From: Oscillospiraceae bacterium
Lineage (GTDB): Bacteria > Bacillota > Clostridia > Oscillospirales > CAG-272
Direction: 5' to 3'
Assembly: GCA_015064805.1 (NCBI GenBank)
Contig: SVRN01000009.1
Span: 2,614-66,613 of the forward strand
Length of the DNA stretch: 64,000 bases
Shown: piece by piece, positions 1,282-63,747 of the stretch
Numbering within the stretch: position 1 is the first letter of the stretch
How the letters are laid out: every line of letters starts with the position of its first letter
Translations under genes and position numbers: made by a program
The notes under the pieces: generated by a model
The model's database searches: none
Told to the model about the DNA's origin: nothing
What the model saw: the letters and a program-made list of their open reading frames with translations, nothing else

Positions 1282-1774
1282 TCCTTCTAAAATACTTCAC
1301 CGCCGCAGGAATATACACGATCAGCGATCCGATCAGCCCTGCCAGCAGAACGGCAAACAGATGAACGAAGCTCTTTTCGCATATTGCCCGCCATGCGCCC
1401 AGCACCAGATACGCGGGAATGGTCATGATAACGTAGGTCAGCGGATGGTCGTGAAGCCGCTTGGCGGCAAGCGCTGCGTATACCGCGATGCCAAAGAAGA
1501 TAAGCGGCAAGAGTGATATACCAACGCCCGTCAGCGCGTCCAAAATCAAGCCGCCGACCATGCCGAGAATACCCCCGACGATGGGCCCGCGCTTCCAGCC
1601 GATCAGCAGTATCAAAGCCGCCGTCAACTCGACCGTCGCGCCAAAAACAGGGATATAGGACAAAAAGCTCGCTTGCAAAATAGCAAACAGCCAGACAAGC
1701 AAAACGAACAGCACCCAGCCAAGGGGCGTCGGCGGCTCGTGTGTCAGTCGATGATCTCGGATCTCATGATCCAT
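1274..1774 (-). CDS. mreD: rod shape-determining protein MreD-like membrane protein
   Basis: 166-aa polytopic hydrophobic ORF overlapping the mreC stop by 11 nt. The call rests on size, hydrophobicity and mreC linkage. Confidence 0.7.
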   Translation of the reverse strand: MDHEIRDHRLTHEPPTPLGWVLFVLLVWLFAILQASFLSYIPVFGATVELTAALILLIGWKRGPIVGGILGMVGGLILDALTGVGISLLPLIFFGIAVYAALAAKRLHDHPLTYVIMTIPAYLVLGAWRAICEKSFVHLFAVLLAGLIGSLIVYIPAAVKYFRRKN

Positions 1775-2696
1775 CGCCGCTCACCTCCCCGCTTGCCTGA
1801 TCGGAGTTTTTATCGTTTTGCTCGGTGTTGCCCGAGTCATCGTTTTCCGTTTCATTTTCATTTTTCTCGCCCGTGACGATCATCAGCGTCGCCGTCGAGG
1901 AGTAATCCGCGTACAGCCGTACGTACGCGTAGGGCGATCGATCGTACGAATCTACCCCAATCTCGACGATCTCACCGATGAGAAGACCGTGGGGATATTT
2001 TTCACCGTATCCGCTGGTCACGATCACGTCGCCGACCTGCAAGGCCGTTTGGTGATCCACGTTGGCGTCCAGATATTGCAGCTTGGCGTGCGTCTGACCC
2101 GCCTGAAGGCCGCACAGCGTACCGTTGATGCCCGAGCGAACGACCGTCGCGCCGATGAACAGCGTTTCTTCCTTGAGCGTCGTGACCTTGCAGGTCGAGG
2201 CGGAGACCTCACTGACCGTGCCGTACAGTCCTCCTGCGCTCAAGACGGGCATGCCAACGGCAATACCGTGGCGGCTTCCCTTGTTCAGCGTGACCGTCCG
2301 ACCCGATGGGTCGTTGTTGTAAATGATGCTCGCGTCAGTCAACGCAAGGGTGGGCTGCTTATCTTTCAGCTCGAGATATTCACGCAGCTGGTCGTTTTCT
2401 TGCTTCAGCTGTTCCAGCGCGGCGAGCTGTTCGCGCAGGGCGGCAAGCTCTTGATTGGCATCGTTGAGCTGTTGTTGTAATTTTTCATAATCGTCACCGC
2501 TTGCCAGCGCGTCGGAGGCGCTTTTTCCTGCCGCGCTGAACAATTTCGTCAGGGGGGAGGAGATGGTGGTGATGGTATTGCGGATGAAGTCCTTGGTGCT
2601 CGTGAGAGATAGGATGGTGGGGATGAGGCAAAGGAGCAGGGCAATGCAGGTGCAGAGGATCAATTGTTTTTTTAAGGATGGTTTTTTTCGACGCAT
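1764..2696 (-). CDS. mreC: rod shape-determining protein MreC
   Basis: N-terminal TM segment, a coiled coil (QQQLNDANQELAALREQLAALEQLKQENDQLREYLELK), then an MreC beta-domain (GMPVLSAGGLYGTVSEV...GDVIVTSGYGEKYPHGLLIGEIVEI). Start moved to ATG 2696 (MRRKKPSL) behind AAAGGAG. The longer ORF-track start lies in repeat DNA. Confidence 0.85.
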   Translation of the reverse strand: MRRKKPSLKKQLILCTCIALLLCLIPTILSLTSTKDFIRNTITTISSPLTKLFSAAGKSASDALASGDDYEKLQQQLNDANQELAALREQLAALEQLKQENDQLREYLELKDKQPTLALTDASIIYNNDPSGRTVTLNKGSRHGIAVGMPVLSAGGLYGTVSEVSASTCKVTTLKEETLFIGATVVRSGINGTLCGLQAGQTHAKLQYLDANVDHQTALQVGDVIVTSGYGEKYPHGLLIGEIVEIGVDSYDRSPYAYVRLYADYSSTATLMIVTGEKNENETENDDSGNTEQNDKNSDQASGEVSGDGS

Positions 2697-2730
2697 TGGA
2701 GCTCCTTTCTTTTTTATTTTGACGAGAATA

Positions 2731-3228
2731 AAATTTAAATTTATACAATAGTTTCTACGGACGATCATACTGCGAGCCTTCGGCTCGCGCTGATCTGTAC
2801 CGGTAATTGATGTTCATTCTTTGCCACGCGGCAAAGAACGAACCAAGAAAACGCGCCCGGACGTTCCCTCCGGGGCCTCCCTTTCCGTGCCGCTCTTCAA
2901 AGAGTAGCAGGAGAAAAACATAAAATATTCTAATGCATCTCCCGCCACGCAGATACCACGAGCGGCAGATATGGGGAGCAAGAAGTTTTGCGGGTTTCTT
3001 AAGGGCATTAGGCCCCGAATGAAATTTTGCGTTCTATGGGAAGAATTTTGCTTTGCAAAATTCTTCGAGGTGGGCAAACTGAACTTTAGAAGTATCGTTG
3101 TCACGAAAGCCCACCATATCTTCGCCTATTCTTTGCGGCAAGGCAAAGAATGGGCATCAAATGCGATACAGCGCGGCGCGAAGCTGTACGCGCGTCTGTA
3201 GGAGAAGACGTAGAAAATTTAGTTTTCC
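2731..3228 (+). repeat. HME copy 2 (short variant)
   Basis: Same end, C and D modules (CTACGG..., GTTCATTCTTTGCCACGCGGCAAAGAACGAAC, CCCGGACGTTCCCTCCGGG) and the same right end ...CTGTACGCGCGTCTGTAGGAG. Confidence 0.8.
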
Positions 3229-3532: not shown

Positions 3533-6189
<2,657 letters not shown>

Positions 6190-8815: not shown

Positions 8816-9533
8816 TGGATGGAATTTTAAACTACTTCTTCTACGGACGATCATACTGCGAGCCTTCGGCTCGCGCTGATCTGTACCGGTTTTTAGATGT
8901 TCATTCTTTGCCACGCGGCAAAGAACGAACCAAGAAAACGCGCCCAGGCGTTCCCCCTGGGAACCCCCTTTCCGTGCCGCGCTACAAACAAGAACAAGAG
9001 AGATCACATATTATGTTTTAATGCCATTCTTCAAGTGTAGCCACCACGCGCGGCAGGCAGAGAGAGCAAGAACGTTTTGCTTTCTTGGTAGGGGCTGGCG
9101 CCTCGACAGCCCGTTTTGGTGACAGACGAAGAAACAAAATCGTTTTCGTTTGAACTTTAGTTAAAAATGGGGTGCGTCGCAGTTAGCAAAAACTTTTTGC
9201 TTTTATGCTTGCGTGCGTCTTTCGTGTTGGTGTTTTTCTTTAAAACACCAACGCAAAGGCTGAAGATGTTTGTTTTCGCGCCACTATCAGAAAAATCTGT
9301 GATTTTTCGTGGCGCGTTGCGGGTTTCCAAAGGGCATTAGGCCCTTTGGCGCGTTTCTTCCGCCACTTCTTGCCGCATAGCAAGAAGTGGCACAAAGCCG
9401 CACAGCGCGAAGCCATATTTCGCAAGCGAAATAGCAAGTTTTGCTCGCCCGCTAAACACGGGCGTCATGCAAGCATGAACACAAAACTAGCTGTACGCGC
9501 GTCAATAGGAGCAGTTTCAAAAATTTTCAATAC
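8816..9533 (+). repeat. HME copy 4 (between the dnaN start and oriC), with an 81-bp Y module inside its right arm
   Basis: Near-identical to copy 3 over most of its length. Carries extra sequence at 9410-9490. Confidence 0.85.
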
Positions 9534-14715: not shown

Positions 14716-14750
14716 ATCGGCAGAGGCATTGTTTCCTCTGCCGATTTGTG
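14716..14750 (+). terminator. hairpin after copA (also the 5' hairpin of the transposase unit)
   Basis: ATCGGCAGAGG, 8-nt loop, CCTCTGCCGAT, then TTTG. Confidence 0.6.
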
Positions 14751-14773
14751 GTATCATAATGTGGGTGATGAAA

Positions 14774-15364
14774 ATGGAAAAATTAAAAAATCGTAAGAAC
14801 ACTCGCTTGAAGGGGGCGGATTATAATAGAAATCAAGCAGTTTTCCTAACAATATGTACGAAAGAAAGACAATGTCTGCTTTCCAAAATTGTAGGGACCG
14901 GCGTCCCCGACGGTCCTCAAATCGAATTAACAGAATACGGACAAACCGCGGATAAATACATCCATCAATTGAATGATTTTTACGACGATCTATCGGTCGA
15001 GAGTTATGTAATCATGCCAAACCATATTCATATTATGCTGTGGATAAAAGACATGGAAAACGGACCGTCGAGGACGCCGGTCACAGACGGACCGTCGAGG
15101 ACGCCGGTCACAGACGGACCGTCGAGGACGCCGATCACAGACGGACCGTCGAGGACGCCGGTCCCTACAGTACAGAATTCTGTTCCGTCGAGGTTCGTAT
15201 CTACGTTCAAAAGATTTTGTAATAAAGAATATGGAAAAAATATTTGGCAATATCGCTCCAATGATCATATCATCCGCAACCGTCATGATTATGAGGAGCA
15301 TTTGCGATACATTTATGAAAACCCCATACGTTGGTACTATGATGAATTATATGTTGAAGAATAG
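14774..15364 (+). CDS. IS200/IS605-type HUH-Y1 transposase, RAYT-like, carrying in-frame REP-derived repeats
   Basis: HUH motif YVIMPNHIHIMLWI and C-terminal Tyr region HDYEEHLRYIYENPIRW. Between them lies GPSRTPVTD x4, encoded by a 27-bp tandem REP hairpin. The start is ambiguous (ATG 14768 or 14774). Confidence 0.8.
   Translation: MEKLKNRKNTRLKGADYNRNQAVFLTICTKERQCLLSKIVGTGVPDGPQIELTEYGQTADKYIHQLNDFYDDLSVESYVIMPNHIHIMLWIKDMENGPSRTPVTDGPSRTPVTDGPSRTPITDGPSRTPVPTVQNSVPSRFVSTFKRFCNKEYGKNIWQYRSNDHIIRNRHDYEEHLRYIYENPIRWYYDELYVEE
14890..14916 (+). repeat. REP-1 hairpin (TGTAGGGACCGGCGTCCCCGACGGTCC) inside the transposase ORF
   Basis: GTAG followed by the GGACCG...CGGTCC palindrome. Confidence 0.85.
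15062..15170 (-). repeat. four tandem 27-bp REP-1 units, in-frame inside the transposase ORF
   Basis: GGACCGTCGAGGACGCCGGTC plus ACAGAC occurs three times. A complete GGACCGTCGAGGACGCCGGTCCCTACA then follows. Confidence 0.9.
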
Positions 15365-15466
15365 GTACCTATCCGTTCCCCAATGTATATGAAAATTGAA
15401 AGATATTCAGTTTCAATAAACAACCCCGACAGACCTTGAAAATCTGTCGGGGCTATTTTTATTTTC

Positions 15467-15491
15467 GGCGAGAGAAGGTCCTCGCCCTACA
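15467..15491 (-). repeat. REP variant (GGCGAGAGAAGGTCCTCGCCCTACA) at the 3' edge of the transposase unit
   Basis: Palindrome GGCGAG...CTCGCC followed by CTAC. Confidence 0.7.
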
Positions 15492-18980: not shown

Positions 18981-19588
18981 GTTTATCTGAATTTCATGCT
19001 ACTTCTCCTCTTGACGCGCACACAGCTTTGCGCGTGCGCTGTGCTGTTTTGATGTTCATTCTTTCTCATCCGAGAAAGAACGAACCAAGAAAGAGGACTT
19101 AAGGGCCTAATGCCCTTAAGAAACCCGCAAGACTTGCCGCTTTTGCTATCTTTTGGTGGTTACCAAAAGGCGTTGTGGCATTTGCAATTTTTGCGCAACG
19201 AAATCCAAAGATTCCGTTGCTACTGCAAGCAGGCTATCGTTTTCCGCTTTATTCCGTGCCGCGCTGCAAAGAGAAAGACGAGAAAAACATAAAAGTTTAT
19301 CCTGCGTCTCTCGCCGCTTTGCCACCACGCGCGGCAGGCGGAGGAAGAAAAAGTTTTTTTCTCGGTAGGGGCTGGCGCCTCGACAGCCCGTTTTGGTGGC
19401 AGGCGGAAAAAAGCAAAATCGTTTTTGCTTGAAATTTTGTTGAACCAGGGGGCGTCGCAGATAGTTAAAGCATTTGCTTTCGCTCGTTGCGTACGTCTTC
19501 CGTGTTTGCAAGTTTCTTTAACTTGCAAATGCAAAAGCTGAAGACGCTTGACTTCGCGAAAAAATGAGCAGAGCGAAGTGTCGCGCCA
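18981..19588 (+). repeat. HME copy 5 (right arm missing)
   Basis: The left arm, the E module with REP-3 (19196-19223), the G block, REP-2 (19365-19389) and the I and J modules are present. The K and C modules and the end are absent on the right. Confidence 0.8.
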
Positions 19589-20715: not shown

Positions 20716-21478
20716 GCTGAAATTGAAGCGACTGCTTCTACGGATGGGCGCGACACAACGCGTCGCGCTTTGCACTTTATGCTACTTCTTGGCCTTTCCC
20801 AAGAAGTAGCCAAGAAGGAAACTTAAGGGCCTAATGCCCTTAAGAAACCCGCAAGATTTGCCGCTTTCGCTATCTTTTGGTGGTTACCAAAAGGCGTTAT
20901 CGCGTTTGCAATCTTTGCGTCAGCGGATCAAAGATCCGCTTCCTATTGCAAGCAGGCTATTACTTCTTACTTCATTTTGTGCCGCGCTTCAAAGAGGACA
21001 GAGGAGAAAAACATATTTAATTCAATTCATCTCTCGCCGTTTTGCCACCACGCGCGGCAGGCGGAGGGAGCGAAATCATTTTTGTTAAAAAGTTAGTTGA
21101 ACCGGAGTGCGTCGCAGATAGCAAAAGTTTTTTCTGTTTTGCTTGCGTGCGACTTCCGTGAGCGTGGCTTTATTTAAGCCGCGCTCGCAAAATCTGAAGA
21201 TGCTCAACTCCGCGCAAACATGAGCGGAGTGACAACGCAGCGACGTTTGCGCGTTGCGGGTATCCAAAGGGCATTAGGCCCTTTGGCGCGCAATGTTTGC
21301 GCCCGCGCTTGCGCGATGTTCGCGTTTAGCGAACAAGCAAACTTGCGATTTCGGCTTGCCGAAATCTGGTTTCTTCCGCCACTTCTTGCCGCGTAGCAAG
21401 AAGTGGCATCAAATCCGCACAGCGCACGCGCAAAGCAGTGTGCGCGTCCGTAGAAGAAGATGCAGAAAAACTAAATTT
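20716..21478 (+). repeat. HME copy 6 (with E and X modules)
   Basis: Full arms are present and the X module lies at about 21286-21375. The right end abuts the maf stop. Confidence 0.85.
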
Positions 21479-24420: not shown

Positions 24421-25116
24421 GTTTGATAGATGGAAAATTGAACTGCTTGCGTTTACGGGCTCGCACAATGCGCTCGCTGTGTGGTGGTAATGCCTATTCT
24501 TTGCCTTGTCGCAAAGAATAGGCGAAGAAAAGACACTTAAGGGCTTAATGCCCTTAAGAAACCCGCAAGACCTGTTTCTTTCGCTATCTTTTGGTGGTTA
24601 CCAAAAGGCGTTGTGGCATCTGCGAGTTTTGCGCAACGAAATCCAAAGATTTCGTTGCTACTGCAAGCAGGCGATCGTTTTCTGCTTTATTCCGTGCCGC
24701 GCTACAAATTGCTTCACGAAAAAAACATAAAAGTTTATTCTGCATCTCTCGCCGCTTTGCCATCACGCGCGGCAGGCGAAGAGAGAAAAATCGTTTTTGT
24801 TGAAAAATCAATTGAACCGGGGTGCGTCGCAGATAGCAAAAAATTTTGCTTTTTTGCTTGCGTGCGACTTTCGTGTTTGCAAGTTTCTTTAACTTGCAAA
24901 CGCAAAAGCTGAAGATGCTCAACTCCGCGCAAATATGAGCGGAGTGACAACGCAGCGACGTTTGCGCGTTGCGGGAATCCAAGGGGTATTAGACCCCTTG
25001 GCGCGTTTTCTTGGTTCGTTCTTTGCCGCGTGGCAAAGAATGAACACCAAAAACCGGTACAGCGCACGCGCAAAGCAGTGTGCGCGTCAAAAGGAGCCGT
25101 TGTAAAAAAACTCAAT
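24421..25116 (+). repeat. HME copy 7 (with E module)
   Basis: Full arms are present. C hairpins lie at 24492-24523 and about 25013-25046. Confidence 0.85.
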
Positions 25117-30759: not shown

Positions 30760-31660
30760 GAAAGTTTTATAGAACTACTTCTTGGGTCTCACCCTGCGCT
30801 TGCAAAGACAGATTGAATTATTTGCAACCGTTTCTTTTGACGCGCGTACAGCTGGTTTTGTGTTCATGCTTGCATGACGCCCGTGTTTGGCGGGCGAGCA
30901 AAACTTGCTATTTCGCTTGCGAAATATGGCTTCGCGCCGCGCGGTTTTTTGTGTACTTTCTTTGTCTCTGAACAAAGAAAGTACGAAAGAAACGCGGGCA
31001 TCTAATTCAGTGCTTATGGGAAAGTTGAATTACCCGCTTCCGAAGAATTTTGCTTGCAAAATTCTTCCCATAGAAAATAAAATTTTTTCTGGGCCTAATG
31101 CCCTTAAGAAACCCGCAAGACTTTTCTCTTTCACTATCTTTTGGTGGTTACCAAAAGGCGTTGTGGCGTCAGCAATTTTTGCGCAACGAAATCCAAAGAT
31201 TTCGTTGCTACTGCAAGCAGGCGATCATTTTCTGCTTTATTCCATGCCGCGCTTCAAAGCAAATAGAGGAGAAAAACATATACGTTTTTCTGCATCTCTC
31301 GCCGTTTTGCCACCACGCGCGGCAGGCGGAGAGAGCGAAATCGTTTTTGTTGAAAAATCAGTTGAACCGGGGTGCGTCGCAGATAGCAAAAAATTTTGCT
31401 TTTTTGCTTGCGTGCGACTTTCGTGTTTGCAAGTTTCTTTAACTTGCAAACGCAAAAGCTGAAGAAGTTTGTCCCCGCGAAAAAATGAGTGAAGCGACAG
31501 CGGAACGACTTTTCGCGCTCGGGGGTTCTAAGGGGTATTAGACCCCTTGGTTCCCTTCTTGGCTACTTCTTGGGGAACGCCAAGAAGTAGCATAAAATGC
31601 TTTCAGCGAGCGCGTTGTGCGAGCTTGTAGAAAGATTTCTAACAAATCTGAAATCATAAA
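30760..31660 (+). repeat. HME copy 8 (longest; duplicated left end, Y module in reverse orientation, E module)
   Basis: The Y module lies at 30852-30932 in reverse complement and the E module at about 31107-31240. The right end lies 26 nt from the cca start. Confidence 0.8.
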
Positions 31661-32993: not shown

Positions 32994-33640
32994 GTTTGAA
33001 ATTTCAAGCAGCTTCTCTTTTTTGACGCTCACACTGTGCCTGCGGCACGCGCTCGCTGTTCCGGTTTTTTATGCCACTTCTTGGCGCGCCCCAAGAAGTG
33101 GCGGAAGAAGCGCGCCAAGGGGTCTAATACCCCTTGGTACCCCCGAGCGCGCAAACGACGCTACGTTTCACTCCGCTCATATTTGCGCGAAAAGATGCAT
33201 CTTCAGCTTTTGCGAGCGCGGCTTAAAGAAAGCCACGCTCACGAAAGTAACACGCAAGCGACATTGCAAAAGCTTTTGCCATCTGCGACGCACCCCAGAC
33301 TAACTAATCTTCAAACAAAAACGATTTCGCTCTCCCTGCCTGCCACGCGTGGTGGCTACACTTGAAGCACCGCACTAAAACATAATATGTAATCTCTCTT
33401 GTTCCTCTTTGTAGCGAGGCAATCGCAGGGAGGCCCCCAAGGGTTCGTCCGGGCGCGCAATGTTTGCGCCCGTGCGAAGCACGATGTTCGCGTTTAGCGA
33501 ACAAGCAAACTTGCGATTTTGGCTTGCCGAAATCTGTTTTCTTGGTTCATTCTTTGCCGCGCGGCAAAGAATGAACATAAAAAACGGTACAGCTCAGCGC
33601 GCACCGCAGGTGCGCAGTATGAGCGTCCGTAGAAAAAAAG
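32994..33640 (-). repeat. HME copy 9 (reverse orientation, with X module)
   Basis: The J, I, H and G blocks read as reverse complement. X lies at about 33452-33542. Confidence 0.85.
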
Positions 33641-44384: not shown

Positions 44385-45205
44385 GTTTGAGCGACTTCTC
44401 CTTTTGACGTTCGCACTGTGCCTGCGGCACGCGCTCGCTGTGCGGCTTTGATGCCACTTCTTGGCGCGCCCCAAGAAGTGGCGGAAGAAGGACGCCAAAG
44501 GGCCTAATGCCCTTTGGAAACCCCGAGCGCGAAAAGTCGTTCCGCTGTCGCTCCACTCATTTTTTCGCAAAAGCAAGCATCTTCAGCTTTTGCGTTGGCG
44601 TTTTTATTGAAAACGCCAACACGGAAGTCGCACGCAAGCATAAAAGCAAAAAGTTTTTGCTATCTGCTACGCCCCCAGCTCAACAAAATTTCAAACAAAA
44701 ACGATTTTGCTTTCCCCGCCTGCCACCAAAACGGGCTGTCGAGGCGCCAGCCCCTACCGAGAAAGAAAAAACTTTTTCTTCCTCCGCCTGCCGCGCGTGG
44801 TGAAAAAGCGGCGAGAGATGTAGAAAAAACATATATGTTTTTCTCCTCTATTCGCTTTGAAGCGCGGCACGGAGTGAAGAGAGGAGAGATCGCCTGCTTG
44901 CAGTAGGAAGCGGATCTTTGATCCGCTGACGCAAAAATTGCAGACGCCACAACGCCTTTTGGTAACCACCAAAAGATAGTGAAAGCGAAAAGTCTTGCGG
45001 GTTTCTTAAGGGCATTAGGCCCTTAAGTCCTCTTTCTTGGTTCGTTCTTTCTCGGATGAGAAAGAATGAACATCTACGCTACACAGATCAGCACGCACCG
45101 CAGGCGCGCAGTATGATCGTCCGTAGAAAAAGTTGTAAAAAGTCTGGCAATTTCTTTTGCGCGCAGCAGTACGCGCGCGGGTAGGAGAAGTTGTTCAAAA
45201 TCCCC
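44385..45205 (-). repeat. HME copy 10 (reverse orientation, with E and REP-2 modules) plus an extra solo end
   Basis: REP-2 lies at 44733-44757 and REP-3 at 44903-44928. A second, isolated end unit lies at about 45147-45205. Confidence 0.85.
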
Positions 45206-47429: not shown

Positions 47430-47652
47430 CGCAAACGCAAAAGCTGAAGATGCCCACCTTCGCGCAAATATGAGCGAAGTGAAACGTAGCGACGTTTGCG
47501 CGTTGCGGGAATCCAAAGGGCATTAGGCCCTTTGGCGCGTTTCTTCCGCCACTTCTTGCCGCGTAGCAAGAAGTGGCATAATAAGCTGAACAGCGAGCGC
47601 GTGCCGCAGGCACAGGGCAAGCGTCAAAAGAAGAAGTGGTGAGGAATTTCAC
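47430..47652 (+). repeat. HME copy 11 (right half only)
   Basis: Only the J module, the K hairpin, the C hairpin and the end are present. Confidence 0.8.
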
Positions 47653-54571: not shown

Positions 54572-57500
54572 ATGAAAAAGTTTCTTGTAATCCTCATGGT
54601 TCTGGCGCTTTGCGTGCTGACTTTTGTCGCTTGCGAGCCCCAACAGCCTGTGGATCCTCAGCCTGAGGTTACGTATGACGCAAACGCTGCGGTAACGTAC
54701 GTTTTCAACCTCTACAAGGATAGCACCACCAAGCAGGAAGACTTCGAGGTGACTGCAACCGTTCAGGTCGGCGGCATTGCTTACGACATCGAATGGACCG
54801 CCAGCGAGGGCGCAACCGTCACCAAGAAGGACGATAAGACCTATACCGTTGACATTGACGAAAAGTCCGCTACGGGCTATGAGTTCACCCTGACGGCAAC
54901 CGCTAAGGCTGCTGACGGTACCACCGCCCAGAAGGCGATCAAGTTCAACGTTCCCAAGTACGAGGTTCTTTCCTTCGAGCAGTACATGGCTGCAAAGGAG
55001 GATGACACCGTTCTTATCGAAGGTATCGTCGTTGCCATCAACTCCAAGGCCGCAGGCAATACCAGAAACCATCTGTTCCTGGCAGACGCTAACGTCGTTG
55101 GCGGCTACTACTCCTACCAGATGGACGCTGACCCCGTTGCTGACCTTGGCATCGAGGTCGGTATGACCGTTTCCGTCTCCGGTCCCATTGCTCCTTACCA
55201 CGGCATGCAGGAGATCAAGGGCGGTACGGCTAAGATCGTTGACGCTACCAAGAAGGAGTACGCTCCCGTTGACATCACCGACAAGTTTGCTGCAGGCGAG
55301 TCCCTGAAGAACTACGTCGGTCTGCCCGTAACCATCAAGGGCGTTGAGATCGCCGGCCAGGAGCTGGGCGGCACCTCCGATTACCTTAAGTTCAAGCTGA
55401 ACGAGGAGATCTCTTACATCCGTACCTACGTTACCGACTTCCCCACCACGCTTAAGATCGTCGTGGGCGAGGACGGCACCACGAGCAGCCCCGATAAGAC
55501 CACCATCGACGAGGCTCACGCAGAAAAGTTCGGCTGGAAGGCTAACGTTACCGGTATTCTGGTTCTGTACAACAGCGCACCTTACCTCATTCCTATGGAC
55601 ACCGGCTGCTTCGAGTACCTGGAAAAGGTTGAGAAGACCCCCGAGCAGAAGATCGCTGACACCCTGGAGGGCCTGAAGCTCGACGCAAGCTTCACCTCCG
55701 ATGCAGTCGTTGAGCTGCTCGCAGCAGGCGCCGCTTATCCCGAGGTTACTCTGACCTGGACCTCCAACAGCGAGCACGCTGTCATCGCTGACGGCAAGCT
55801 GACCATCACCGTTCCCGATGCGGCTACCGAGGCTATCGTAACCGTTACCGCAACCTGCGACGGCAAGACCGCTACCAAGGAATTCAAGATCAAGCTCTCC
55901 AAGTCCGTAACTCCCGTTGCTGACATCATCGCTCTTGGCGCATCCAAGGAGCACAACACCTACACCGAGGAGAAGTACCTCGTTGCAGGTATCATTACCG
56001 AGGTTTACAACACCCAGTACGGTAACATGAAGATCACCGACGATCAGGGCAACGTCCTGACCATCTACGGTACCTACAGCGCAGACGGTGCAGACCGTTA
56101 CGACGCTATGGCAAACAAGCCCGTTGCTGGCGACTACGTCGTTATCTTCGGTATCGTTGGCCAGTACAACGGTACTCCTCAGGTGAAGAACGGTTGGATC
56201 ATGTCCTTCACCACTCCCACCTCCGTTAAGGATACCATCGATCTTGGCGCATCCAAGGAGCACAATACCTACACCGAGGAAAAGCACCTGGTAACCGGTG
56301 TCATCACCGAGGTTTACAACACCCAGTACGGTAACATGAAGATCACCGACGCTGAAGGCAACATCCTGACCATCTACGGTACCTACAGCGCAACCGGTGC
56401 TCTCAGATACGACGCTATGGAAAAGAAGCCCGTTGCAGGTGACACCGTTACCATCTACGGTATCGTTGGTCAGTACAACGGCACGCCTCAGATCAAGAAC
56501 GGTTGGATCGTTGCTAACGTTGCAGGCGCAGGCGAAACGCCCGATCCCGATCCCGAGCCCTCCGACGATCCCGCTCCCGATTCTACTCTGACCGTTGAGC
56601 AGGTCATCGCTCTTGGCGCATCCAAGGAGCACAACACCTACACCGAGGGCAAGTACTACGTCACCGGTGTGATCACCGAGATCTACAACACCCAGTACGG
56701 TAACATGAAGATTACCGACGATAAGGGCAACATCCTGACCATCTACGGCACCTTCGACGCAACCGGTGCAAACCGCTTCGACGCTATGGCTAACCAGCCT
56801 GCTGTTGGCGACACCGTTACCATCTACGGTATCGTTGGTCAGTACAACAATACCCCCCAGATCAAGAACGGTTGGATCACCGAACAGAAGCCTGCCGCTC
56901 CTGAGGCGCCCTCCTTCATCGAGGTTCCGATCGACAGCGATAAGTGGGATCAGTGCAAGCTGAAGCTGGACTTCCAGGGAATGCCCATGTCCCAGCACAG
57001 AAACTGGGCTGCAGGCAGCTCCCTCCATGTAGGCGCCTTCATGTATCGCTACGGTGAGATCACTGCCGTCGGCGAAGCGCCTGTCATTGATATTTCCGGT
57101 ATGAAGTATATCGAATTCGACGTTTACGTTTCCCATATCGACGTGATTGCTGAGGCTCTGTTCAGCTTTGAGCTGACCTCCAGTGGAGCCTCCGATAAGG
57201 AGGAGAACTGCAAGAAGTTCTATGGTAAGGACACCGGTTGGGTTGTTGGTTGGAACCACGTGAAGTGGAATCTGAGCGATTTCACCGAGCACGGTCCCGA
57301 CGGCAAGCCTATGGACGCTACCAAGTGGAACTTCATCCGTTGGTACAGCGATTCCACCATCACCGTTGGTGAAGAAAAGCTGAAGGTTGCGATTGCTAAC
57401 ATCAAGTTCACCAACGACGATTACGTTGAAGAGGAAAAGCCTGAGGAGCCCGAGACTCCCGAGACTCCCGAGACTCCCGCAACCGGCAACAAGGCTGACT

Positions 57501-58006
57501 TCAACACCTTCTACGACGGTGCGGCAAAGACCCAGTACGCAACCCATACGACGGCAGGCGGCTGGACGGTCAACAATGCGCAGGTCATCATTGGTACCAA
57601 CGACGCTGACGTAGCAAACACCCAGACCGGTGTGTTCTCCTTCATCGGCGGCGCAGGCACCTCTGCTGCCGTTATTAACGGTAAGACCAGTGCAGTCGGC
57701 AGCATCGTTTCCCCCACGCTGGCAAACGGTATTGCTTCTCTGAGCTTCCAGTACGGTCATCCTTACTCCGAGGCCAATGGTGTTAACATCACCATTACCA
57801 TCAAGAAGGGTGGCGAGGTTGTGGCAACCAAGGACCTTGTAATTGCAGCCGCTGAGGTTGCACAGAATACGGCATACAGCTACACCTGGACGCTGGATAC
57901 GGCTGTTGATGGCGAGTTCACCATTGAGATCGTTAACAACTGCCCTACTGCTTCTTCCAAGAACAAGGACAGACTTGCTATTTGGGATATCACCTGGAGC
58001 AAGTGA
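54572..58006 (+). CDS. 1144-aa surface lipoprotein with OB-fold-like domains, including three tandem repeats of about 100 aa
   Basis: Lipobox LTFVAC. Carries three copies of ALGASKEHNTYTEEKY.V.G.ITE.YNTQYGNMKITD..GN.LTIYGT.....RYDAM...P..GD.V.I.GIVGQYNGTPQ.KNGWI. Confidence 0.88.
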   Translation: MKKFLVILMVLALCVLTFVACEPQQPVDPQPEVTYDANAAVTYVFNLYKDSTTKQEDFEVTATVQVGGIAYDIEWTASEGATVTKKDDKTYTVDIDEKSATGYEFTLTATAKAADGTTAQKAIKFNVPKYEVLSFEQYMAAKEDDTVLIEGIVVAINSKAAGNTRNHLFLADANVVGGYYSYQMDADPVADLGIEVGMTVSVSGPIAPYHGMQEIKGGTAKIVDATKKEYAPVDITDKFAAGESLKNYVGLPVTIKGVEIAGQELGGTSDYLKFKLNEEISYIRTYVTDFPTTLKIVVGEDGTTSSPDKTTIDEAHAEKFGWKANVTGILVLYNSAPYLIPMDTGCFEYLEKVEKTPEQKIADTLEGLKLDASFTSDAVVELLAAGAAYPEVTLTWTSNSEHAVIADGKLTITVPDAATEAIVTVTATCDGKTATKEFKIKLSKSVTPVADIIALGASKEHNTYTEEKYLVAGIITEVYNTQYGNMKITDDQGNVLTIYGTYSADGADRYDAMANKPVAGDYVVIFGIVGQYNGTPQVKNGWIMSFTTPTSVKDTIDLGASKEHNTYTEEKHLVTGVITEVYNTQYGNMKITDAEGNILTIYGTYSATGALRYDAMEKKPVAGDTVTIYGIVGQYNGTPQIKNGWIVANVAGAGETPDPDPEPSDDPAPDSTLTVEQVIALGASKEHNTYTEGKYYVTGVITEIYNTQYGNMKITDDKGNILTIYGTFDATGANRFDAMANQPAVGDTVTIYGIVGQYNNTPQIKNGWITEQKPAAPEAPSFIEVPIDSDKWDQCKLKLDFQGMPMSQHRNWAAGSSLHVGAFMYRYGEITAVGEAPVIDISGMKYIEFDVYVSHIDVIAEALFSFELTSSGASDKEENCKKFYGKDTGWVVGWNHVKWNLSDFTEHGPDGKPMDATKWNFIRWYSDSTITVGEEKLKVAIANIKFTNDDYVEEEKPEEPETPETPETPATGNKADFNTFYDGAAKTQYATHTTAGGWTVNNAQVIIGTNDADVANTQTGVFSFIGGAGTSAAVINGKTSAVGSIVSPTLANGIASLSFQYGHPYSEANGVNITITIKKGGEVVATKDLVIAAAEVAQNTAYSYTWTLDTAVDGEFTIEIVNNCPTASSKNKDRLAIWDITWSK
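55905..56885 (+). repeat. three in-frame tandem coding repeats (about 309 and 369 nt apart) within the 1144-aa lipoprotein
   Basis: CTTGGCGCATCCAAGGAGCACAA recurs at 55934, 56243 and 56612. Confidence 0.9.
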
Positions 58007-58030
58007 GTAAAGACTTAGGTCAATAAAGAA

Positions 58031-58067
58031 AGGAACCGCATCTTCGGATGCGGTTCTCTTTTTTTGT
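58031..58067 (+). terminator. intrinsic terminator after the 1144-aa lipoprotein gene
   Basis: GAACCGCATC, loop TTCG, GATGCGGTTC, then TCTTTTTTT. Confidence 0.8.
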
Positions 58068-58076
58068 TTGGCGGGA

Positions 58077-58857
58077 GTTTTATCGACTTCTCCTCGGGAC
58101 GCGCGTACAGCTGACGCGCCGCGCTGTGCCAACTTGGATGCCACTTCTTGGTGCGCCCCAAGAAGTGGCGGAAGAAACCAGATTTCGGCAAGCCGAAATC
58201 GCAAGTTTGCTTGTTCGCGGTCGCGAACATCGCGCAAGCGCGGGCGCAAACATTGCGCGCCAAAGGGCCTAATGCCCTTTGGATTCCCGCAACGCGAAAA
58301 GTCGCGGCGCTTCGCTCTGCTCATTTTTTCGCGAAGGGTTGCATCTTCAGCTTTTGCGTTGGCGTTTTAAATAAAAACGCCGACACGGAAGGCGCACGCA
58401 AGCGAAACTGCAAAAGTTTTTGCCATCTGCGACGCACCCGAGTCAAACAAAATTTCAAGCAAAACGATTTTGTTTTCTGCGCCTGCCGCCAAAACGGGCT
58501 GTCGAGGCGCCAGCCCCTACCGAGAAAGAAAAAGCTTTTTCTTCCTCCGACTGCCGCGCGTGGTGGCAAGGCGGCGGGAGATGCAGCAGGGTAAAGATGT
58601 CTTTCTCCCCAGTCTACCTTGTAGCGCGGCACGGAAAGGGGGTGCCCAGGGGGGAACGCCTGGGCGCGTTTCTTGGTTACTTCTTGCCGCGTGGCAAGAA
58701 GTGACACGAAAAGCTGGCACACCGAGCGCGCGAAGCCATATTTCGCAAGCGAAATAGCAAGTTTTGTTCGCCCGCTAAACACGGGCGTCATGCAAGCATG
58801 AACACAAAACTAGCAGGGCGAGGCCGTAGAAGAAGTTGCTGAAAATTCAGCTAAACT
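58077..58857 (-). repeat. HME copy 12 (reverse orientation, with X, REP-2 and Y modules)
   Basis: X lies at about 58170-58262, REP-2 at 58496-58520 and Y at 58733-58813. Confidence 0.85.
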
Positions 58858-58879: not shown

Positions 58880-58908
58880 TTGACTTTTCCCCCGCCATGC
58901 TCTATAAT
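58880..58908 (+). promoter_or_regulatory. sigma-A-type promoter for the barnase-like RNase gene
   Basis: TTGACT, 17-nt spacer, TATAAT. Confidence 0.6.
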
Positions 58909-58947
58909 ATAAATAATGTAGAAAATCCCCGAAAAAGGAAGTTACCC

Positions 58948-60447
58948 ATGAACGCTCTGAAAAAACTCACCCTGCTGCTCCTGGTCCTCGCCACGCTGAC
59001 AAGCGCCCTGCTTGGCTGCCAGCGCCCCGACCAGCCCCAGCCCCCCGAAATCGATCTGCCCACCGCCATCGACATCATCGGCGCGGATCGCGTTTCGCTG
59101 ACCCTCGGAGACGAGCTTCAATTGAGAATCGACCAAAGCGAAGAGATATTGTCCATGATCAAGTGGACAGCCACGAGCGACTGCGTCAGCGTCAGCGACA
59201 GCGGCCTCGTCACCACCAACCGCGTCGGCACCGTGCTCGTCACCGCCACACTGGGCGAGCTGAGCGACAAGGTGCTCATCACCGTCGTTGACACCACCAA
59301 CCGCCCCGAGTCCGTCACCCTTACCGCAGAAAAAACCACGCTGATGATCGGCGAGTCGACCGACCTGATCGTGTCCGTCGCCCCTGCAGGCGCGGCATCG
59401 GGCGCCATTTTCAGCGTCACGAGCGGCTCTGATGTGATCACGGTTCAGGACGGCAGAGTCGTCGCCCAAAAGGAGGGCACTGCCACCGTCGTTGCGACCG
59501 TCGCAGGTGTTGCGAGCGAGGAGCTGACCATCACCGTCGCTCCTGCCGTCGACCCCTACGAGGGCATGAGCGCGGACGAGTTTTACGCCAATTACACCGT
59601 CGCGGACAGCTATCTGGACGCCTACTACCGCACCCAGCACGGCTTTATGTCGGGATCGCTGACCGTTCCCGATCAAGCACCCGTGCTCTCCGAGTATCAG
59701 CCCATGCGCGACGGTATGCTCATCCGCAACCGCGCGACGCGCTACGAGGACGACGGCAACACCTACGTCGTGGTGAATGCTTATGGGCAGGAGGTCATGG
59801 AGATCTACCGCGGTGCGGCCTACATCACGCTGGAGGAGGTTGCCGCTTACGTCTTCGCCTTCGGCGACGTGCCCGCCAACTATTCCGCTACCAAAAAGAC
59901 CAAACCGACCCAGAGCGTCTGGGGCATTTACCTGCGCGTCAATCACACCCAGTTCACGGGTGATACCTCGCGCTACCCCTACGAGCCCGAGCTGCCCAAC
60001 ATCAGCGGCTGTGGCGGAGATTTCGTTTATTACGAGATCGACATCGGTACGACGGGCAACGACTGCGATCCCGCCTATCGCCCTGCCCTTTACAACAACG
60101 GCGTGTCCATCATCCGCGGCGCCTCCCGCATCGTCTACGCCCGCTTTGATAAGAACAACAACCACATCACCGAGCCCGACGAAAAGTTCGTCTTCTACAC
60201 CTACAACCACTACAACGATTTTCAGGAATATCTGAACTATTTTGGCGGCTGGGGCGAGATGTTCGGTAATATCACGGGCGGCGGTGTGATCTCGGATAAG
60301 CAAAACTGCAATCCCACGCCCTACGTGCCCGTCTGGCGGGGAGATCTGTCCGAGGCTACGCTTCAATCTCCCACGCGCGAGCAAAACGACTACGTCGAGA
60401 TCGTCTGGTGCCTGCCCGTCGAATGGACGGAGCGCAAGCACGCGTAA
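58948..60447 (+). CDS. lipoprotein with Ig-like (Big_2-like) domains and a C-terminal barnase/RNase Sa-family ribonuclease domain
   Basis: Lipobox ALLGCQ. The C-terminus aligns by eye with barnase: VAAYVFAFGDVPANY / VADYLQTYHKLPDNY, FVYYEIDI / TWREADI (catalytic Glu), RGASRIVYA / RNSDRILYS (Arg), YTYNHYNDF / KTTDHYQTF (catalytic His). Confidence 0.85.
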   Translation: MNALKKLTLLLLVLATLTSALLGCQRPDQPQPPEIDLPTAIDIIGADRVSLTLGDELQLRIDQSEEILSMIKWTATSDCVSVSDSGLVTTNRVGTVLVTATLGELSDKVLITVVDTTNRPESVTLTAEKTTLMIGESTDLIVSVAPAGAASGAIFSVTSGSDVITVQDGRVVAQKEGTATVVATVAGVASEELTITVAPAVDPYEGMSADEFYANYTVADSYLDAYYRTQHGFMSGSLTVPDQAPVLSEYQPMRDGMLIRNRATRYEDDGNTYVVVNAYGQEVMEIYRGAAYITLEEVAAYVFAFGDVPANYSATKKTKPTQSVWGIYLRVNHTQFTGDTSRYPYEPELPNISGCGGDFVYYEIDIGTTGNDCDPAYRPALYNNGVSIIRGASRIVYARFDKNNNHITEPDEKFVFYTYNHYNDFQEYLNYFGGWGEMFGNITGGGVISDKQNCNPTPYVPVWRGDLSEATLQSPTREQNDYVEIVWCLPVEWTERKHA

Positions 60448-60506
60448 CAGAATAGAAAAAACGCCAAGACAAGGGCTCCTTCTCATAAGGAAGTTTGATT
60501 TCTCCT

Positions 60507-60533
60507 TGTAGGGACCGGCGTCCTCGACGGTCC
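60507..60533 (+). repeat. REP-1 hairpin, left boundary of the cargo cassette
   Basis: TGTAGGGACCGGCGTCCTCGACGGTCC. Confidence 0.9.
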
Positions 60534-60605
60534 ATCACAATAATTGTATTGCAGAAAACAAAGATTAACCCCGACAGATTTTTTAATCTGTCGGGGTCAA
60601 ATTTA

Positions 60606-60944
60606 TTAGCCAATATCAAAAAAGCAAGGAACTAAATGATGCGGCTTATACTTATCAATAGTTTCTACAATATGGGCTCGGATTTCTTCTAAAGAACAAT
60701 GTTTCATATTTCTGTCATATATCATTGTTTCAGCCCACATATATTCGGGATTTTCTTTATCACCGTATCCTCCACCACCTAATGAATCCTTTTGCTTGTC
60801 TATCAAGACGTATTCAAACCAGAGGATCTCGTTTACAAAACCTCCACACTCAAAAAGCAATTCTACAAACTCGCTCCAGTTTCTAAATATCAAATCCGAA
60901 CAAACTTTATTTTCTTCTATGTATTTTTTTATTTTGCCGTCCAT
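60606..60944 (-). CDS. hypothetical 112-aa cytoplasmic protein (cargo of a REP-bounded cassette; candidate RNase inhibitor)
   Basis: ATG 60944 sits 7 nt behind GAGGTG. The ORF is visibly AT-rich in a GC-rich window. No family was recognised with confidence. Confidence 0.6.
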   Translation of the reverse strand: MDGKIKKYIEENKVCSDLIFRNWSEFVELLFECGGFVNEILWFEYVLIDKQKDSLGGGGYGDKENPEYMWAETMIYDRNMKHCSLEEIRAHIVETIDKYKPHHLVPCFFDIG

Positions 60945-61257
60945 AATAACACCTCGTTTATTATCGTTAATCGCCAGTTTCGCATCTGTATTACAAATAC
61001 TTCGGGCAAAGCCCATGCCGCTACGGTTGCGCGTCCTAAGGCTCCCTCCGGGAGGGAGCTGGCGCCGCAGGCGACTGAGGGAGAATGCGTTACACGAAGG
61101 TTTTCACAAATCGAAAGTCACGCAGGTTCCTTCCGTCACGCTACGCGTGCCACCGCATCCGCTTGCGGATGGCATCTCGGAGGGAGGCTTTTCGTTAGTC
61201 TCATTATAACACAGATCGGCAGAGAAAACAAGTTCTCTGCCGAAAATTATGTGTCGC

Positions 61258-61284
61258 GGACCGTCGAGGACGCCGGTCCCTACA
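61258..61284 (-). repeat. REP-1 hairpin, right boundary of the cargo cassette (inverted)
   Basis: GGACCGTCGAGGACGCCGGTCCCTACA, the exact reverse complement of 60507-60533. Confidence 0.9.
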
Positions 61285-61332
61285 ATTTGTAAACATCCTT
61301 ATGAGAACGAGCCTAACCGTCCCGCGTTTTCT

Positions 61333-61836
61333 TCATTTTCCCGTCATTCTTTTGAGCACGTCCATAAACTGCTCGCTCGCTTGCAGGCGAAGGACGATCC
61401 TCTCGCCGTTTTCTTCAAACAGAAGATAGACCACGCGCGAGGCGAAAATGTCGGGGCAATAGGAATGGATGCGGTCGGCGTGATAGGCGCGGCGAACGGC
61501 CTTTTCCTCTTTGGCGGCGCACACGTCGTACTTGCAAAGGTCGCTGAGCAAAAGTCGGCAGATGGTCGTTTGCTTCTGGCCGCGTTGCTCGATTACGGCC
61601 AGCTCGTCACGCTCGTCCTTGTCCGATTTTTGGATCGTGTAGGTGTATTTGACCAGCGTGCTGCCAAGCAGCACGACGGTGACCATCATCAGCACGATGC
61701 CGATCGTCTGGAGCACCGCGCTAAAGTCGAAAAAGCGCGCGCAGGTAAAGACGGCAATGCCGCATAGACCAAATAACAGCGCCAGAATTGCGGCGGCGTG
61801 ATTTTTTCTCGTGGGCGTTTCGGAAAAATAGATCAT
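61333..61836 (-). CDS. hypothetical two-TM membrane protein
   Basis: 167 aa, two N-terminal TM helices and a soluble C-domain. Lies downstream of rarA. Confidence 0.6.
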   Translation of the reverse strand: MIYFSETPTRKNHAAAILALLFGLCGIAVFTCARFFDFSAVLQTIGIVLMMVTVVLLGSTLVKYTYTIQKSDKDERDELAVIEQRGQKQTTICRLLLSDLCKYDVCAAKEEKAVRRAYHADRIHSYCPDIFASRVVYLLFEENGERIVLRLQASEQFMDVLKRMTGK

Positions 61837-63174: not shown

Positions 63175-63747
63175 GTTTAGCTGGATTTTCAACAACTTCG
63201 CCTACGGGCGCACACTGCTGCGCGCGTGCGCTGTACCGGCTTTGATGCTACTTCTTGGCGTTTCCCAAGAAGTAGCCAAGAAGGAAACCCGGCCGTTCCC
63301 TCCGGGGCCTCCCTCCATCCCTCCGGCCTTTCATGGCCGTCGGGGCTGTTTGTCTCAGCAAGCTTCCTCCATCTTGGGCGCATAAGCGCACGCCCAAGAT
63401 GGGTTCGCATGGCAAAAGCTTTTGCTTTTCCGTCCTGTTTGAACTTTCGTCTATCACAGGGAGAGAGGCAAAAACTAATGTCTTTTGCTAAAGCGGAGTC
63501 CGAGCGACTCCCGTGAGTGCGACTTTGTTTAAGTCGCGCTCGCAAAAGCTGAAGATGCTCGCTTTTGCGTCGTGCTGCGCGCTTGCGCGCCCGCAAAGAC
63601 GCACTGCGGGAATCCAAAGGGCATTAGGCCCTTTGGCGCGTTTTTTCGTCCTTTTTGTCGCGTGACAAAAAGGACAACACACATACACCGCCGCGCGTTG
63701 TGCGGCGGCAAACAAGAGAAGAAGATGTAGCAATTTTAATTTTTATC
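63175..63747 (+). repeat. HME copy 13 (divergent centre)
   Basis: Both arms and the I, J and K modules are present. The centre is replaced by unrelated hairpins, for example CATCTTGGGCG...CGCCCAAGATG. Confidence 0.75.

Follow-up and report, generated by a model that had tools for sequence, protein, structure and literature searches.

RAYTs (REP-associated tyrosine transposases) are the textbook case of a domesticated transposase, and their only known substrates are the tiny REP (repetitive extragenic palindrome) and REPIN repeats. They have been described as domesticated, single-copy and cargo-less genes which are tied only to REP/REPINs (PMC5581495, PMC3116915, PMC3337134) and which disperse REP/REPIN sequences of 20-100 nt (PMC5581495, PMC3116915). 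Here we surveyed 64,000 nucleotides of an Oscillospiraceae bacterium (GenBank assembly GCA_015064805.1, contig SVRN01000009.1, positions 2,614 to 66,613 of the forward strand), this whole stretch being called the window, which holds one RAYT-type gene (14774-15364) and a gene cassette (60471-61316) that shares two hairpins with it. In our judgement the cassette probably belongs, as a non-autonomous member that has lost its RAYT, to a family of small transposons of gut Oscillospirales whose cargo is exchangeable and which would be mobilised by RAYT. An earlier reading of the same letters (the original prediction) had drawn the cassette between two inverted copies of a REP family, REP-1, and had regarded it as a transposase-less, cargo-carrying derivative of an IS200/IS605-like element.

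With the RAYT/REPIN systems the locus shares a RAYT-type Y1/HUH protein, found in the window and in full-length relatives and single-copy in this genome, together with GTAG/CTAC-tagged REP hairpins inverted around the unit and inverted, hairpin-containing repeats flanking it. It differs in that the RAYT shares a unit bounded by repeats with a passenger gene and stands at sites which vary between species, that RAYT-less, gene-bearing derivatives of 0.7-0.9 kb are dispersed, that the target is a terminator loop, and that the cognate REP-1 is embedded in frame in the RAYT open reading frame (ORF) of the window and not beside the gene. The cassette is not a REPIN by definition, its REP-1 arms being 724 bp apart and enclosing a gene, and REP-less copies being found.

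Elements of the IS200/IS605 group have no terminal inverted repeats, carry their end hairpins in direct orientation and insert 3' of a specific tetra- or pentanucleotide. In IS200 the transposase gene is directly preceded by a terminator-like hairpin (cited in PMC13548323). Such a hairpin is also seen here, and the membership of the Y1/HUH superfamily and the occurrence of transposase-less derivatives retaining the end structures are further points shared with this group and its palindrome-associated transposable elements (PATEs). The differences are that the cassette ends are inverted repeats, that the target is structural (a hairpin loop) without a flank motif, and that there is no Pfam Y1_Tnp match. 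A Y1 transposase is encoded by two full-length relatives (loci L064 and L065) and not by the window cassette.

Mobile insertion cassettes (MICs), such as MIC231 of Bacillus cereus, are mobilised in trans by DDE transposases (IS231, Tn3) with ordinary direct target duplications. Like these, and like cargo-bearing miniature inverted-repeat transposable elements (MITEs) and Tn3-derived inverted-repeat miniature elements (TIMEs), the cassette is bounded by terminal inverted repeats, lacks a transposase, carries as cargo a gene not concerned with transposition and is present in many copies at different sites, with putative autonomous relatives whose ends appear to match. From MICs it is set apart by having a Y1 RAYT as its sole associated enzyme, by terminator loops as its target and by a cargo that can be exchanged within a standardised expression frame. 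Integron cassettes, PeSL (promoter stem-loop) units of T4-type phages and phage morons resemble it in having one short, compositionally foreign ORF per unit, structured flanks, a diverse accessory repertoire and ORF exchange in a constant frame, with promoter and stem-loop in PeSL and an own promoter and terminator in morons; it differs from them in having no attI array and in that its units are chromosomal, dispersed in terminators and not phage-borne. No integrase was noticed in the called gene lists of the loci, and no formal attC search was made. By analogy, the unit may work like a mobile insertion cassette, moron or integron cassette set on a RAYT backbone. Literature searches turned up no account of cargo cassettes linked to RAYT, nor of any targeting of terminator loops, and this RAYT-plus-passenger transposon family of gut Clostridia looks like a previously undescribed one.

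Anatomy of the cassette and its constant frame

The cassette is 846 bp long, splits an intrinsic terminator of the host and has imperfect inverted repeats at its ends (core TTCTCATAAGGA). Its parts, and those of the RAYT unit with which it shares the hairpins H1 and H2, are given below; the coding strand of the cassette is the minus strand.

60456-60470, no strand: one half of the host terminator (AAAAAACGCCAAGAC, plus strand), just past the stop of the 516-aa gene (60445-60447) and complementary to 61317-61332
60471-60506, minus: right terminal inverted-repeat arm (..AACTTCCTTATGAGAAGGAGCCCTT, coding orientation), conserved at the right end in many loci and pairing with 61285-61316
60480-60492, minus: core of the right arm, a small hairpin (CTTC / GAAG)
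60507-60546, minus: REP-1 unit in the right arm, with hairpin and CTAC at 60507-60533 and tail CAATTATTGTGAT at 60534-60546
60551-60568, minus: post-terminator box TTAATCTTTGTTTTCTGC, which follows H2 in cassettes of all cargo types
60569-60596, minus: H2 intrinsic terminator hairpin (CCCCGACAGA-N8-TCTGTCGGGG, -26.1 kcal/mol), common to the RAYT unit, with compensatory stem variants
60606-60944, minus: cargo ORF of 112 aa (34.2% GC), a predicted small alpha/beta protein
60950-60955, minus: ribosome-binding site (RBS) GAGGTG, conserved in aligned copies
60956-61026, minus: spacer or 'leader' (..GGCATGGGCTTTGCCCGAAGTATTTGTAATACAGATGCGAAACTGGCGATTAACGATAATAAAC), corresponding to the RAYT-cargo intergenic region of full-length elements and conserved across cargo types
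61027-61201, minus: GC-rich (61%) nested repeat standing where the RAYT ORF is missing; L004a and L039 lack this repeat
61203-61243, minus: H1, the putative promoter module (-18.6 kcal/mol, flagged as terminator-like), with hairpin TCGGCAGAG-N10-CTCTGCCGA at 61216-61243 and -10 element TGTGTTATAAT at 61203-61213
61244-61284, plus: REP-1 unit in the left arm, with tail at 61244-61257 and hairpin and CTAC at 61258-61284
61285-61316, minus: left terminal inverted-repeat arm (TTAGGCTCGTTCTCATAAGGATGTTTACAAAT, coding orientation)
61317-61332, no strand: other half of the host terminator (coding strand AGAAAACGCGGGACGG), abutting the stop codon of the 167-aa gene (61333-61335)
14716-14757, plus: H1 hairpin (14716-14745) and extended -10 element TGGTATCAT (14749-14757) of the RAYT unit
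14774-15364, plus: RAYT-type Y1/HUH transposase gene of 196 aa, single copy, the only Y1-type gene in the window
15424-15452, plus: H2 terminator of the RAYT unit, followed at 15467-15490 by a CTAC-tagged palindrome unlike REP-1

Most of what the original prediction had read from the letters was recovered. The sequence of REP-1 (GGACCGTCGAGGACGCCGGTCCCTAC) is present with 0 mismatches at 60508-60533 (minus) and 61258-61283 (plus), with 0 expected from 100 shuffles; the 27-nt arms at 60507-60533 and 61258-61284 are exact reverse complements, and outside the RAYT ORF the 64 kb contain no other REP-1 copy. The minus-strand ORF of 112 aa is preceded by its RBS, and its GC content lies, as had been noticed by eye, far below that of the window (34.2% vs 54.4%, the flanking genes having 55-60%). 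The similarity of the 5' and 3' hairpin regions to those of the transposase unit was confirmed by alignment, with 61243-61203 matching 14717-14757 over 41 nt (83%, within-window E = 7e-6) and 60597-60551 matching 15423-15469 over 48 nt (81%, E = 9e-5). The first match spans the hairpin TCGGCAGAG..CTCTGCCGA and an extended -10 (TGnTATAAT or TGnTATCAT), and a CTAC-tagged palindrome trails both loci as had been stated (GGCGAGAGAAGGTCCTCGCCCTAC at 15467-15490 in the RAYT unit, REP-1 in the cassette).

On the coding strand H1 forms the hairpin TCGGCAGAGAACTTGTTTTCTCTGCCGA (61243-61216) with a -35-like hexamer TTGTTT in its loop, and the perfect extended -10 TGTGTTATAAT (61213-61203) sits 17 bp downstream of this hexamer, which suggests a promoter hairpin. 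The spacer may hold an internal promoter of its own (TTGTAA-N18-GATAAA). H2 is a strong hairpin, CCCCGACAGA..TCTGTCGGGG, with a T-rich tail (60596-60569), and its half-sites have 4 matches in the window against 0.07 expected. A terminator scan flagged H1, H2 (on both strands) and a small hairpin of the spacer. In other copies the H2 stem is kept by the compensatory variants CCCCAACAGA/TCTGTTGGGG, CCCCGAGAGA/TCTCTCGGGG and CGCCGACAGA/TCTGTCGGCG, and the H1 stem by CGTCAGAG/CTCTGACG and CAGAGG/CCTCTG. H1 and H2 behave as expression modules (promoter hairpin and intrinsic terminator) and not as demonstrated transposase-recognised ends, the role which had been given to them at first; the ends are the inverted repeats lying in the split terminator.

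The search for further units with this frame, which had been advised, yielded many, and their cargos were catalogued. The order is constant, namely H1, a conserved spacer with RBS, the cargo and the terminator H2; the conserved 5' part runs from H1 through the spacer (GGGTATGGGCTTTGCCC..CCTTTGTAATACAAAGGCGAAACTGGCGATAAA..GATAAATAAGAATTTGACGAGG) up to the RBS and the 3' part begins at H2. The cargo is replaced within this frame. A close relative (L039) has at the orthologous site, between flanks of 96% and 92% identity, a different ORF of 167 aa; arms, H1 and spacer are the same there, H2 is a variant and REP-1 is kept on the right-hand side. The 175-bp nested repeat, absent there, is also missing at the orthologous site in L043, L044 and L047. 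One contig, L004, carries a 220-aa cargo with a weak DinB_2 match (L004b) beside a copy of the 112-aa type (L004a). Other cargos in the frame are a GNAT acetyltransferase, a trypsin-like protease (Trypsin_2), a DUF2695 protein, a HAD hydrolase, two transmembrane proteins, a 176-aa membrane protein, a zinc-ribbon protein and unknowns; the catalogue is a small sample, a pattern scan of metagenomes having given 5 loci. In L059 (1507 nt) cassettes stand in tandem, with the end of an AT-rich ORF, a REP, H1, spacer, a 173-aa transmembrane cargo, H2, REP-like hairpins and the next H1.

A motif of the 3' untranslated region, (ATTCC)AATTTGTCGAAC, lies just after the cargo stops of L061, L004b, L060 and L064 and of the distant 112-aa homologues L032, L034 and L035; it resembles AATTTGACGAGG, which precedes start codons, and the window copy is without it. 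As direct repeats around cargos, AATTTGACGAGG / AATTTGTCGAAC are real on the 3' side in several cargos and overlap the RBS on the 5' side. A motif of this type may be a recombination or regulatory site.

Dispersed copies, element ends and terminator loops

A public assembly collection has 372 indexed blocks with the exact 112-aa protein, and the ten loci fetched for it lie in at least 7 unrelated gene neighbourhoods; the DNA common to them corresponds to 61248-60551 of the window (H1 through H2) at 86-97% identity. Twenty-eight loci were found in about 27 species-representative metagenome-assembled genomes (MAGs), the protein being at least 98% identical in 8 of them, and two contigs of one MAG (L018, L033) both carry the cargo ORF. 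Sixteen copies of the ORF in different contexts differ from that of the window at no more than 5 of 339 nt, and contigs often break inside it, which like the two contigs of one MAG points to a multi-copy unit. The cassette with a nearly identical ORF is present in at least 20 different split terminators of gut Oscillospirales assemblies. A tblastn search of phage and plasmid records gave no match to the cargo or the units.

The ends of the element were located from aligned copies which have no REP at all (L001, L002, L005, L008-L010, L012, L014). At their left end ..TTAGGAGTGTTCTCATAAGGATGTTTACAAATTT passes directly into CGGCAGAG (H1), and the right end reads ..TTTTCTGCGAATCAAGTTGAATTGAACTTCCTTATGAGAAGAAGCCCTT. 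Beyond the shared core every copy reads ..TTAGGnnnGTTCTCATAAGGA.. at one end and ..TCCTTATGAGAAGnAGCCYTT at the opposite one. The window arms 61316-61285 and 60506-60471 match those of the REP-less copies but for a REP-1 unit of about 40 nt which splits each of them, and since the arms continue outside these units the inverted repeat extends to about 73 nt (81%, 60474-60545 vs 61245-61313). Other REP families occupy the same two positions in L003, L007, L039, L061, L065 and L069. From the REP-less copies and the replacement of REP families it follows that the REPs are not ends but were inserted secondarily and repeatedly at hot spots, and the bounds which had been set at REP-1 (60507 and 61284) had to be moved about 35 bp outward on each side, to 60471 and 61316. 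In most copies TT stands at both junctions on the coding strand, and may either belong to the element or represent a 2-bp duplication.

Just outside the arms the flanks are mutually complementary, with an A-tract and stem on one side and a stem and T-tract on the other. Complementary flanks of 10-16 nt were computed for L001, L005, L012, L014, L016, L039 and the window, with -13 to -27 kcal/mol when joined by a short loop (-15.7 kcal/mol in the window, -21.5 kcal/mol in the orthologous L039), and split terminators were also recognised by eye in L004a, L004b, L006, L060, L064 and L069. Examples of split stems are AAAAAAGCACTTGCGT..ACGCAAGTGCTTTTTT (L001), AAAAAAGACCGCC..GGCGGTCTTTTTT (L005), AAAAAACGCCGAGAC..GTCTTGGCGATTTTT (L039) and AGAAAACGCGGGACGG..GTCTTGGCGTTTTTT (window). 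At least 20 distinct A-tract/stem flanks were counted, and the left flanks have no common motif beyond being terminator stems. Two convergent genes (516 aa and 167 aa) flank the element in the window, and the split stems abut both of their stop codons.

Unfilled terminators were found as well. In L060 a filled terminator (AAGCACCCAA-element-TTGGGTGCTT) has an unfilled paralogous counterpart, AAGCACCCGATTGGGTGCTT, and where more distant relatives carry an orthologue of the flanking 167-aa gene (71% and 55% aa identity), an element-free, intact terminator comes after it, AAAAAGGACGCCGATCGGCGTCCTTTT in L069 and L070 and AAAAAAGGGCTGTCTCCCGCAGGAGACAGCCCTTTT in L072. The comparison with empty sites that had been proposed is thus answered in part, with such terminators in distant relatives and an occupied site in all close relatives examined.

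Two further explanations can be weighed on these data. The cassette could be an ordinary horizontally acquired gene which received REP insertions on both sides by chance and has a RAYT-like promoter and terminator; the REP-1 copies are indeed secondary inserts and the site is occupied in all close relatives examined, but the many contexts, the inverted-repeat ends, the split-terminator flanks, the full-length RAYT-bearing relatives and the alternative cargos in the same frame make this scarcely credible. It could also be that nothing transposes, and that the frames are mobile regulatory cassettes of PeSL type which are spread by homologous recombination and horizontal transfer. The change of cargo with retention of the frame at one site between close relatives, the tandem cassettes of L059, the mixed flank combinations in L002 and L009 and conserved frames long enough to recombine would all be expected from this. 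Frame recombination, however, cannot put a nearly identical unit into at least 20 unrelated terminator loops whose stems are dissimilar, and we consider the explanation improbable as a whole; recombination probably explains the exchange of cargo and not the dispersal.

RAYT-bearing relatives and the proposed mode of movement

The transposase of the window matches the NCBIfam model NF047646 (REP_Tyr_transpos) with E = 2.9e-12 and, among PDB entries searched with phmmer, the TnpA-REP protein of E. coli (4ER8) with E = 3.8e-6; the latter alignment covers the HUH region (vimpnHiHim ~ vvlpeHmHci) and a C-terminal block (NIWQxR..H.IRN..DY..H..YIYxNP). Its ORF holds REP-1 in frame, with one copy at 14891-14916 encoding VGTGVPDGP and four tandem 27-nt copies at 15061-15168 encoding GPSRTPVTD repeats. 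The number of in-frame REP copies varies in the family (one in L065, two in L064, four in the window, with the first REP duplicated in L066), and protein lengths range from 166 to 239 aa. A total of 2864 homologous proteins were obtained at E < 1e-10, and RAYT genes lie at different chromosomal sites in different MAGs.

The full-length form of the element carries the RAYT gene. In L064 it lies at 1446-3076 inside a split terminator, and the locus reads, in this order, left flank AAAAAAGAATGC, inverted repeat, H1, RAYT, stop, spacer, a HAD hydrolase gene, the 3' motif, H2, inverted repeat and the right flank GGCATTCTTTTTTT; in L065 the left repeat is followed by a REP doublet and H1, then by RAYT and spacer, and then by a 176-aa cargo ahead of H2. 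The repeats of L064 are of a variant type common to the cassettes of L006, L060 and L069, and L065 has the main type, at its left end only. H1 of the window cassette (61253-61202) is 90% identical to the sequence just upstream of the L064 RAYT start, and its spacer (61023-60961) is 83% identical to L064 2080-2145, directly after the RAYT stop. Since L064 and L065 place the spacer between RAYT and cargo, it is the RAYT-cargo intergenic region and not a leader. Before its spacer L004a keeps GAATAG, in agreement with the final codons and the stop of RAYT genes. The reading of GTAGGG at the spacer start as a REP tag was rejected, this being better read as retained RAYT stop-codon context, GAATAGGGG. 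In L031 (2380-2500) a 3' remnant of RAYT, with a REP-1-like hairpin and then ..EEHVKYIYENPIRRYYDEVY, directly precedes a homologue of the 112-aa gene with 60% identity.

The window cassette thus looks like a RAYT-deleted derivative, with H1 and spacer aligning around the L064 RAYT and the nested repeat taking the place of that gene. The RAYT unit of the window (H1-RAYT-H2) appears to be the complementary derivative, without cargo and without repeats. GC content of the RAYT ORF after subtraction of its REP segments is 34.4% and that of the cargo 34.2%, a similarity which may count toward a shared origin. Of the derivation first suggested for the cassette, the loss of a Y1 transposase is supported, the RAYT of L064 and L065 lying between H1 and spacer, and the IS200/IS605-like affiliation does not hold in view of the terminal inverted repeats and the lack of a target motif.

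We propose that the complete element is made up of left inverted repeat, H1, RAYT gene, a spacer of about 70 nt with RBS, AT-rich cargo ORF, H2 and right inverted repeat, and that it would reside in the apical loop of a Rho-independent, usually bidirectional, terminator of the host. The window copy would have lost the RAYT ORF and gained the 175-bp GC-rich nested repeat in its place, with the H1 promoter then driving the spacer and the 112-aa gene, and the cognate REP-1 units (about 40 nt) of the host RAYT would have been inserted symmetrically inside both arms. Mobilisation would come in trans from the single-copy RAYT (14774-15364), acting on single-stranded hairpin DNA, and insertion would take place into single-stranded terminator loops. 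RAYT is named as the mobiliser because it is the sole candidate in the complete elements, because activity on hairpin single-stranded DNA is found in known systems and because the loops are single-stranded. Cargo would be swapped by homologous recombination between the 5' frame (H1 and spacer, about 130 nt) and the 3' frame (H2 and TTAATCTTTGTTTTCTGC, about 50 nt), and the cargo genes may be niche-adaptive passengers.

Several points weigh against mobilisation by RAYT and against the wider account. The RAYT of the window scores 46.7 bits, in two stretches separated by its REP-derived inserts, against a curated cut-off of 80 bits for NF047646, and has no Pfam (Y1_Tnp) match at E < 0.1, the latter probably due to the in-frame REP-1 interruptions. 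Its exact protein is found only in a copA-RAYT-pbp context (17 contigs), as for a domesticated gene, and it has neither inverted-repeat arms nor spacer. The elements have terminal inverted repeats, though Y1 transposases of IS200/IS605 do not use them, and TT on the same strand at both junctions also fits a 2-bp target duplication by a DDE transposase. The flanks of L002 and L009 are non-complementary, and these loci may be recombinants between copies or assembly chimeras. Among the copies compared neither a transposition event nor an excised product was observed, nor the same terminator in a precisely empty state, the empty sites being those of relatives with different stems. Nearly all comparison data come from MAGs and short-read metagenome assemblies, where repeats are a source of chimeras and of wrong binning. 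For the cargo, the profile and structure searches which had been recommended gave no known family or fold: the 112-aa protein has no match in Pfam, NCBIfam, PADLOC or PHROG, and a Foldseek search of its model against PDB and BFVD gave none at E < 0.1 (best E = 0.46).

These points bear most on the main rival, in which a MITE-like element or mobile insertion cassette is moved by an unseen DDE transposase through its TTCTCATAAGGA repeats and RAYT is itself a passenger. The true terminal inverted repeats, which Y1 enzymes of IS200/IS605 type are established not to use, the TT at both junctions, compatible with a 2-bp target duplication, and the fixation of the window RAYT in one context all agree with it. 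Yet the complete elements L064 and L065 encode just RAYT and one cargo, no DDE transposase lies beside any of about 40 copies examined, RAYT sits at different chromosomal sites in different species, and RAYT loci are classically bracketed by inverted hairpin repeats (PMC5581495). On this evidence we hold movement by a DDE enzyme to be rather unlikely, and the preferred reading stays that of a RAYT-mobilised, RAYT-deleted element.

A broader proposal is offered tentatively, as a possibility short of an even chance: that this RAYT clade consists of active transposases of small terminator-loop transposons, which with their derivatives form a dispersed, integron-like shuttle of accessory genes in gut Oscillospirales. 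If true, a RAYT lineage travelling in a bounded, gene-carrying element would link the RAYT/REPIN world to classical transposons and would provide a tractable system for what RAYTs cut and join. Insertion into terminator loops would be a safe-harbour strategy and, if its mechanism were understood, might give a tool for structure-targeted DNA insertion. A standard frame with swappable cargo would be an unrecognised route for accessory genes between uncultured gut Clostridia, and the frame would flag confidently folded proteins without known function, the 112-aa family included, as selected cargo.

The cargo protein and further features of the window

The 112-aa protein belongs to a family of unnamed proteins of about 113 aa from gut MAGs of Clostridia/Oscillospirales, with 143 representatives in a profile search, invariant residues and the conserved segment SLGGGGYxDxxNPxYMWAET. 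Its AlphaFold2 model has a mean predicted local distance difference test (pLDDT) score of 97 and the topology a1-a2-b1-a3-b2-b3-a4-b4, from which it may be a small cytoplasmic alpha/beta protein. Differences between the window and more distant copies are mostly synonymous (in L017, 14 synonymous vs 2 non-synonymous codons); together with the sixteen near-identical copies we read this as recent interspecies spread and purifying selection on the cargo, and regard the protein as a likely selected passenger. A likeness of its fold to the little finger of Y-family polymerases was not significant (best E = 0.46). The fused relatives found by the profile search have no informative domains save one WG-repeat fusion.

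The GC-rich nested repeat occurs in two sequence types, and a 116-nt piece of it recurs independently at L007 8509-8625. It contains hairpins of the CCTCCCTCC..GGAGGGAGC type and is also seen in L003, L006, L024 and L069 and upstream of the L027 and L029 homologues. Its reading as a known riboswitch or other RNA was rejected in view of the separate L007 copy, its absence from L004a and L039, and the lack of an Rfam match; at gathering thresholds Rfam had no match in the whole window, and the cassette at E <= 1 gave two sub-threshold chance matches only.

The convergent neighbour of 516 aa (58897-60447, plus strand) is predicted to be secreted, with Big_2 domains and a weak C-terminal match to PF00545 (barnase/T1-type, E = 0.006). 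A pairing of barnase/barstar type between it and the cargo was rejected, the cassette occurring elsewhere without that neighbour, and no link between the two was found. A predicted surface protein of 1144 aa (54572-58006, plus strand) contains three repeats of 287 nt (55914-56200, 56223-56509, 56592-56878) which are 83-85% identical.

At least 12 intergenic regions of the window hold long mosaic repeats made of hairpin strings (families D1-D20, 221 inverted pairs), which are unrelated to REP-1 and the cassette arms. They lie at 783-1275, 5617-6180, 8896-9527, 19032-19576, 20776-21472, 24470-25112, 31020-31603, 33066-33457, 44436-45203, 47431-47588, 58015-58814 and 63242-63686. Hairpin strings resembling these also stand in L004 and L062, in place of the left half of H1.

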